NCBI RefSeq assembly: GCF_055900595.2
Contig: NZ_CM148325.1
Length of the DNA stretch: 64,000 nucleotides
Direction: 5' to 3' (one strand)
The notes under the pieces are model-generated. The model saw only the letters and a list, made by a program, of their open reading frames with translations, did not search any database and was not told the origin of the DNA. The translations under genes were made by a program, and so were the position numbers. This document shows positions 18,056-18,883 of this stretch, one piece after another (the stretch's first letter is position 1; every line of letters starts with the position of its first letter).

Positions 18056-18802
18056 ATGGCATTACTGGAAATTTGCTGTTACAGCATGGAATGTGCACTA
18101 ACGGCGCAGCAAAACGGCGCAGACAGAGTTGAATTATGCGCAGCCCCAAAAGAGGGGGGCTTAACGCCGTCGTTGGGTGTACTGAAATCCGTGCGCCAGC
18201 GGGTGACGATCCCTGTGCATCCGATAATTCGCCCACGCGGTGGTGATTTTTGCTACAGCGACGGTGAGTTTGCCGCCATTCTTGAGGATGTGCGCACGGT
18301 CCGCGAATTAGGTTTTCCTGGACTGGTGACGGGCGTTCTCGATGTTGACGGGAATGTCGATATGCCACGAATGGAAAAAATAATGGCTGCTGCCGGTCCG
18401 CTGGCAGTGACTTTTCATCGCGCCTTTGATATGTGCGCTAACCCTCTAAATACACTCAATAATCTTGCGGAATTGGGCATTGCCCGGGTGCTGACATCAG
18501 GGCAAAAATCAGACGCACTGCAAGGTTTATCAAAAATTATGGAACTTATTGCCCATCGTGATGCTCCAATCATTATGGCCGGAGCAGGAGTCCGTGCAGA
18601 AAACCTGCACCACTTCCTCGATGCCGGAGTGCTGGAAGTCCATAGCTCCGCGGGAGCGTGGCAAGCCTCACCGATGCGTTATCGTAATCAAGGATTGTCT
18701 ATGTCATCAGATGCACACGCGGACGAGTATTCGCGTTATGTCGTAGACGGGGCGGCGGTTGCTGAAATGAAAGGAATCATTGAACGCCATCAGGCCAAAT
18801 GA
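18056..18802 (+). CDS. cutC: Copper homeostasis protein CutC (248 aa)
   Basis: ORF track; [41 protein letters not shown]... Confidence 0.95.
18541..18569 (+). promoter_or_regulatory. sigmaE-type promoter inside cutC coding sequence (drives MicL)
   Basis: GGAACTT (18541-18547), 17-nt spacer, TCCAA (18565-18569); spacing to the cutC terminator gives about 308 nt. Confidence 0.55.
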
Positions 18803-18883
18803 TTTTTACCGTTGCATCATGTCGCCCAATATGATGCTTGCTCGTACCAGGCCCCTGCAATTTCAACAGGGGCCTTTTTTTAT
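18576..18883 (+). ncRNA. micL: MicL (RyeF) sigmaE-dependent sRNA overlapping the 3' part of cutC; ends at the cutC terminator
   Basis: Established location of MicL inside cutC; predicted start downstream of the sigmaE-like promoter; 5' end approximate. Confidence 0.55.
18849..18883 (+). terminator. Rho-independent terminator of cutC/MicL
   Basis: aggcccctg / caggggcct hairpin followed by ttttttt. Confidence 0.8.

Follow-up and report, generated by a model that had tools for sequence, protein, structure and literature searches.

The cutC coding sequence is located on the plus strand at positions 18056..18802 of the window, by which is meant the whole stretch of 64,000 nucleotides that was analysed, and comprises 248 codons according to the list of open reading frames. 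It encodes CutC, a PF03932-family protein, and the name was taken from the matching K-12 and RefSeq E. coli records (99-100% identity), which are annotated as cutC. The same stretch of DNA hosts the promoter of micL and the first 226 nt of its product, the small RNA MicL. The primary MicL transcript (18574..18881, plus strand, 308 nt) is read in the sense direction and covers the last 226 nt ahead of the cutC stop codon, the stop codon itself and the 3' untranslated region (3'UTR).

The Rfam scan of the whole window showed a full-length match to the MicL family RF02654 (model positions 1-308 of 308) with a score of 370.3 bits and an E value of 9.2e-112, the gathering score of this family being 56 bits. 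In E. coli K-12 MG1655 (NC_000913.3) the ncRNA gene micL (b4717) is annotated at 1958441..1958747, where it overlaps cutC (b1874). This annotation maps to 18575..18881 of the window (307 nt), and the start of the Rfam model lies 1 nt earlier, at 18574. The K-12 cutC/micL locus is flanked by yecM/argS and torY/torZ, and the gene order in the window is identical. The first-pass annotation of this DNA had taken the embedded RNA for MicL, an assignment which is borne out by the full-length RF02654 match of 370 bits and by the near-identity to K-12 micL b4717. It had also placed the start near 18576, off by only 1-2 nt (18574 by Rfam, 18575 by the K-12 annotation), and had counted about 308 nt up to a strong cutC terminator; the length and the hairpin stood, and only the end, given as 18883, had to be corrected to 18881.

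Comparison of the window with K-12 MG1655 over 18500..18900 showed that 397 of 401 bases are identical. The alignment with K-12 micL, which the same annotation had named as a check on its proposal, revealed three substitutions, at 18700 (synonymous), 18714 (Ala/Glu) and 18740 (Val/Ile), all of them in the coding part and within the 5' part of MicL that is removed by RNase E. The fourth difference, at 18890, lies beyond the terminator. The micL promoter and the processed form of the RNA, MicL-S (18802..18881), are 100% identical in the window and in K-12.

The segment 18400..18950 was found in 5424 of 5426 complete E. coli genomes. Among the best 12 RefSeq E. coli records matching this segment, cutC was the sole listed feature and no RNA gene was given, as had been anticipated for annotation based on open reading frames. 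Judged by these best 12 matching records, most E. coli genomes carry no micL entry in their standard RefSeq annotation.

Published properties of MicL and the assignment of the locus

MicL, with a length of 308 nt, was identified as the third sRNA in E. coli that depends on sigmaE (Guo et al. 2014, PMC4102768), and its 80-nt form MicL-S has as its 5' end the final base in the stop codon of cutC (PMC4102768). The published rules for the start and the ends, applied to the window, gave 18574..18881 and 18802..18881, in exact agreement with the model match. A GFP fusion carrying PmicL from -65 to +20 was induced by sigmaE, and hardly any MicL was left when the -35 and -10 elements carried silent point mutations (PMC4102768). 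Northern blots are likewise part of the published evidence for sigmaE-dependent transcription of the K-12 sequence (PMC4102768). Treatment with a 5'-monophosphate exonuclease left MicL intact, indicating a primary 5' end, and degraded MicL-S; both RNAs co-purified with Hfq in co-immunoprecipitation experiments (PMC4102768).

By mRNA-seq together with ribosome profiling, lpp was the sole MicL target found (PMC4102768). MicL pairs with codons 6-10 of lpp, translation being blocked first and mRNA decay being secondary; a 4-nt mutation at +41-44 of MicL-S abolished repression, and a compensatory change at +21-25 of lpp restored it (PMC4102768). MicL-S alone reproduced all phenotypes tested, and the copper sensitivity once ascribed to cutC was found to be caused by the loss of MicL (PMC4102768). 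RNase E cuts MicL, the position and efficiency of the cut being set by stem-loop A and by terminator B (-17.2 kcal/mol), which stand in tandem at the 3' end (Updegrove et al., 10.1101/341578).

The RNA of the window shares with published MicL (RyeF; RF02654; b4717; Guo et al. 2014) the position in cutC, the promoter, the length, the terminator, MicL-S (100%), the seed and both 3' stem-loops. What was computed here is the sequence identity, the membership of the family, the folds, the complementarity of the seed and the conservation pattern of the promoter and MicL-S; the dependence on sigmaE, the start site, the processing, the binding of Hfq and the repression of lpp are drawn from the literature on the identical promoter and MicL-S sequence. 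In the strain of the window, dependence on sigmaE would be expected from the sequence identity to K-12. No evidence contradicting the MicL identity was found among the analyses run, and it is practically certain that this stretch of DNA is the Escherichia coli gene micL, its RNA being made and acting as in the published mechanism. MicL is already known and well studied, and the E. coli locus offers nothing new.

The locus nevertheless serves as a validated positive control, in which a coding-embedded sRNA was recovered from raw sequence, and MicL is a classic example of a gene for a regulatory RNA concealed in a protein-coding gene. It accounts for a copper sensitivity that had long been wrongly ascribed to CutC. 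With MicL, the sigmaE sRNA arm controlling the most abundant envelope proteins is complete, Lpp being the protein that is most abundant in the cell.

The promoter within cutC

The -35 element of PmicL, GGAACTT, is located at 18541..18547 (plus strand) and consists of the third base of CutC codon 162 followed by the codons of Glu163 and Leu164. The -10 element, TCCAA, at 18565..18569 (plus strand), is made up of the third base of codon 170, the Pro171 codon (CCA) and the first base of Ile172. The complete motif GGAACTT-N17-TCCAA ends 5-6 nt upstream of the MicL start. The first-pass annotation had drawn attention to this motif at 18541..18569 inside cutC, and both coordinates and strand were verified, the sequence being GGAACTTATTGCCCATCGTGATGCTCCAA. 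A generic promoter scan contained no sigmaE model and was uninformative on PmicL.

The exact motif has a single occurrence in the 64-kb window, and no copy was found in 100 dinucleotide-preserving shuffles. The looser pattern GGAACTT-N15-18-TCNAA also gave a single match in the window, at the same site, yet at least one match appeared in 12 of 100 shuffles; because the relaxed pattern arises this often, the motif alone is suggestive and not decisive. The motif could then be a by-product of the CutC sequence (M-E-L ... A-P-I), the RNA being produced by processing of the cutC mRNA only, in the manner of CpxQ and without an internal promoter. Apart from the frequency of the relaxed motif in shuffles, this explanation gains from the fact that Glu-Leu and Pro-Ile are conserved residues which account for part of the motif. 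A route through processing only is also conceivable in some lineages, such as Serratia plymuthica and S. bockelmannii, where seed and terminator occur without a recognisable promoter.

The codons themselves argue otherwise. A scan with a degenerate pattern for a CutC peptide, which is upstream of the MicL promoter and independent of it, was carried out on one genome per species and yielded 120 loci. At the same codon offset, GGAACT(T/A/C)-N17-TCCAA was present in 32 of 32 Enterobacteriaceae loci, one of them with a single mismatch in the -10 element; GGAACT was thus invariant (32/32) and TCCAA was kept in 31/32. In these 32 loci the codon preceding Glu163 was ATG, ACG, CGG, AGG, GGG, GTG or GCG, always ending in G, so that the amino acid at this position varies (Met, Thr, Arg, Gly, Val, Ala). 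Likewise, the codon preceding Pro171 was GCT, GTT or ACT, and the amino acids encoded by the spacer vary. The Pro171 codon was CCA throughout Enterobacteriaceae, and CCG, CCC or CCA in relatives without the 3'UTR module. All five third-codon positions within the motif show conservation in Enterobacteriaceae, with four of them fixed and 18547, the seventh base of the -35 element, varying between T and A.

A codon alignment was made of 19 sequences that cover the sampled genera of Enterobacteriaceae. The identity of synonymous codons calculated from it reached 0.66 in the promoter, compared with 0.47 in the upstream part and 0.40-0.43 within the MicL coding part. Since synonymous identity peaks at the promoter alone of these regions, selection at the nucleotide level acts on the promoter and not on the 5' 226 nt of MicL. 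Conservation of the wobble positions even where the amino acid changes, together with this peak, speaks against a mere by-product of the CutC sequence, as do the sigmaE-induced fusion, the exonuclease-resistant 5' end and the silent promoter mutants (PMC4102768). Hardly any credence can be given to that explanation, and the combination of a chance motif with a 3'UTR fragment made by processing only was rejected in view of the wobble conservation and the published promoter mutants. The internal promoter is retained here as the origin of MicL.

A second peak of synonymous identity (0.58-0.61, against a gene mean of 0.46, in Enterobacteriaceae) was observed at 18242..18286, approximately codons 63-77 of cutC. 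It rivals the promoter peak, has no obvious cause and may be due to chance or codon-usage bias.

The low synonymous identity of the MicL coding part bears on another possibility, namely that the 308-nt RNA has a second job, either as a leaderless mRNA for the C-terminal 75 residues of CutC or through regulatory sites in its 5' 226 nt. What makes it worth considering is that the transcript begins UAUGGCC (AUGGCC by the K-12 annotation) and that the AUG at 18575..18577 is the codon of CutC Met174, in frame. The coding part of MicL, however, is not under synonymous constraint above background (0.40-0.43 vs 0.47); extra constraint was looked for in the 226 nt with the codon alignment of 19 sequences and none was found, which argues against a conserved function of the 5' part of MicL. 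In addition, MicL-S suffices for every phenotype tested, and mRNA-seq and ribosome profiling disclosed no target besides lpp (PMC4102768). As to leaderless translation, Met174 is conserved in the PIIMAG motif of CutC even in species without the promoter, and therefore the position of the AUG is no evidence of selection for such translation. A 75-residue piece of a TIM-barrel-type protein would moreover be unlikely to fold, and no report of leaderless translation of MicL was found in the literature searched. A second job of either kind is thus considered very improbable. That primary MicL might act as a leaderless mRNA yielding a 75-residue CutC fragment under sigmaE induction is equally a long shot, suggested by the reading frame; if true, it would make micL a dual-function RNA. 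The observed pattern of selection fits an RNA whose function would reside in MicL-S.

MicL-S, its stem-loops and the pairing with lpp

MicL-S, the 80-nt active form processed by RNase E, was assigned to 18802..18881 (plus strand) by identity to K-12 and by the published 5' end. Its minimum free energy (MFE) fold contains two hairpins. Stem-loop A (GCATCATG-loop-TATGATGC) corresponds to nt 13-36, at 18814..18837 on the plus strand, and the terminator or stem-loop B, common to cutC and MicL, to 18849..18881 on the same strand, with the hairpin at 18849..18875 (nt 48-74) and the U-tract at 18875..18881. The terminator hairpin is G+C-rich, with 9 bp, a 9-nt loop and an energy of -17.2 kcal/mol, and is followed by seven T (18875..18881); the segment between the two hairpins is mostly unpaired. 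Stem-loop A and the terminator of the window thus fold as published. The terminator with its U-tract and the U-rich 5' end are features of the MicL-S sequence compatible with Hfq binding, and the U-tract is likely to be the Hfq-binding 3' end. A generic scan for terminators and promoters had missed the cutC terminator because it allowed loops of 3-8 nt, the actual loop being of 9 nt, and this result was set aside, the hairpin having been verified by folding.

Both stem-loops were recovered in the consensus fold of 16 Enterobacteriaceae sequences, and the terminator showed compensatory changes from U-A to G-C across genera. Across genera no other stretch of the locus is as well conserved as MicL-S: the 3'UTR hardly varies, whereas the final residues of CutC have a pairwise identity of only about 0.2-0.5. 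Three elements were invariant in 26 of 26 distinct aligned sequences: GTACCA, the CCCC just downstream in the stem of the terminator, and its GGG counterpart on the 3' side of the stem; the two bases separating GTACCA from CCCC showed only G/A variation.

The seed UGCUCGUACCAG is located at 18839..18850 (plus strand), that is at +38..+49 of MicL-S, and pairs with +16..+28 in the coding sequence of lpp. Since lpp lies outside the window, the K-12 lpp sequence was used for the pairing. The longest Watson-Crick run joins nt 43-49 of MicL-S, GUACCAG, to CUGGUAC at +16..+22 of lpp, and one bulge extends the pairing to +28; the computed site is the published core. When mononucleotide shuffles were folded against lpp, the energy of the duplex was equalled by 33 of 1000 for nt 1-52 and by 57 of 1000 for the full 80 nt, and whole-molecule RNAduplex calculations with MicL-S and lpp gave long duplexes rich in loops. 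Given this modest significance, the pairing is argued from the exact match of the seed and from the compensatory mutants in the literature, and not from the energy.

From these elements the following sequence of events can be proposed. RNA polymerase with sigmaE would initiate, during envelope stress or stationary phase, at the promoter in cutC codons 162-172, and transcription would proceed from 18574/18575 through the 3' end of cutC and the 3'UTR to stop at the cutC terminator at 18881. RNase E, placed by the stem-loops at 18814..18837 and 18849..18875, would then cut at the cutC stop codon and release the 80-nt MicL-S. Bound to Hfq, MicL-S would occlude codons 6-10 of lpp, so that translation of lpp would be blocked and the untranslated mRNA would subsequently decay. 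The lower level of Lpp would lighten the load on outer-membrane lipoprotein trafficking and feed back on sigmaE activity.

Related systems, relatives and other RNAs of the window

The remaining two sigmaE-dependent, Hfq-binding sRNAs of E. coli, MicA and RybB, are, like MicL, transcribed from sigmaE promoters and dependent on Hfq, and they repress abundant outer-membrane proteins as part of the repressing arm of the envelope stress response (PMC4102768). They differ from MicL in being free-standing intergenic genes with many outer-membrane protein targets (31 messages together), whereas MicL is embedded in a coding sequence, processed and directed at the single target lpp. With CpxQ (from cpxP) and DapZ (from dapB), MicL has in common a terminator shared with an mRNA, binding to Hfq and a seed just upstream of the terminator. 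CpxQ is released by RNase E, as is MicL, but has no promoter of its own and relies on transcription of cpxP. DapZ reportedly has, as does MicL, a promoter of its own that lies within the coding sequence upstream. Two routes are thus united in MicL, in that transcription from its own internal promoter is followed by trimming with RNase E.

Among the cutC loci tested with RF02654, a score above threshold was obtained in 15 of 20 from Enterobacteriaceae and in 1 of 17 others, the sole pass outside the family being a metagenome-assembled genome (MAG) that is labelled only 'Proteobacteria' and looks enterobacterial.

A module resembling MicL-S, (A/G)AGTACCA(G/A)GCCCC-loop-GGGGCTTTTTTT, was observed outside Enterobacteriaceae at 50-150 nt 3' of the cutC stop codon, often preceded by TTTGCCGCGC. 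The carriers, which include some Pectobacteriaceae and Yersiniaceae, are Acerihabitans, Dickeya, Brenneria, Pectobacterium zantedeschiae, Rahnella (2), Rouxiella, Serratia plymuthica and S. bockelmannii (loci L014, L022, L046, L079, L085, L088, L092, L093 and L099), and all belong to genera other than those listed in PMC4102768. The Rfam scan took in seven of these loci, that is all except the Serratia loci L085 and L099, and all seven scored under the Rfam MicL threshold. The module was absent in the sampled Yersinia, Photorhabdus, Xenorhabdus, Morganella, Moellerella, Edwardsiella and Arsenophonus and in three other Serratia. At the homologous cutC codons Dickeya has a perfect GGAACTT-N17-TCCAA, and Acerihabitans and Rahnella bruchi have the motif with one mismatch; in Serratia plymuthica and S. 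bockelmannii no recognisable promoter motif was found at these codons. It is tempting to speculate that, if the modules are true homologues, the lpp-targeting seed of the 3'UTR may have arisen before the internal promoter. No report of MicL outside Enterobacteriaceae was found in the literature searched.

Other RNAs were also matched in the window. SraC/RyeA (57028..57172, minus strand, 175 bits) and SdsR/RyeB (57069..57168, plus strand, 114 bits) gave full-length Rfam matches and form an overlapping antisense pair of known E. coli sRNAs. Rfam matches were also obtained for two catalogued candidate RNAs of E. coli, namely ES036/CssrF at 22837..22879 (plus strand, 68 bits), which lies some 90 nt downstream of the stop of torZ (22744), and C0465 at 4506..4583 (minus strand, 112 bits).
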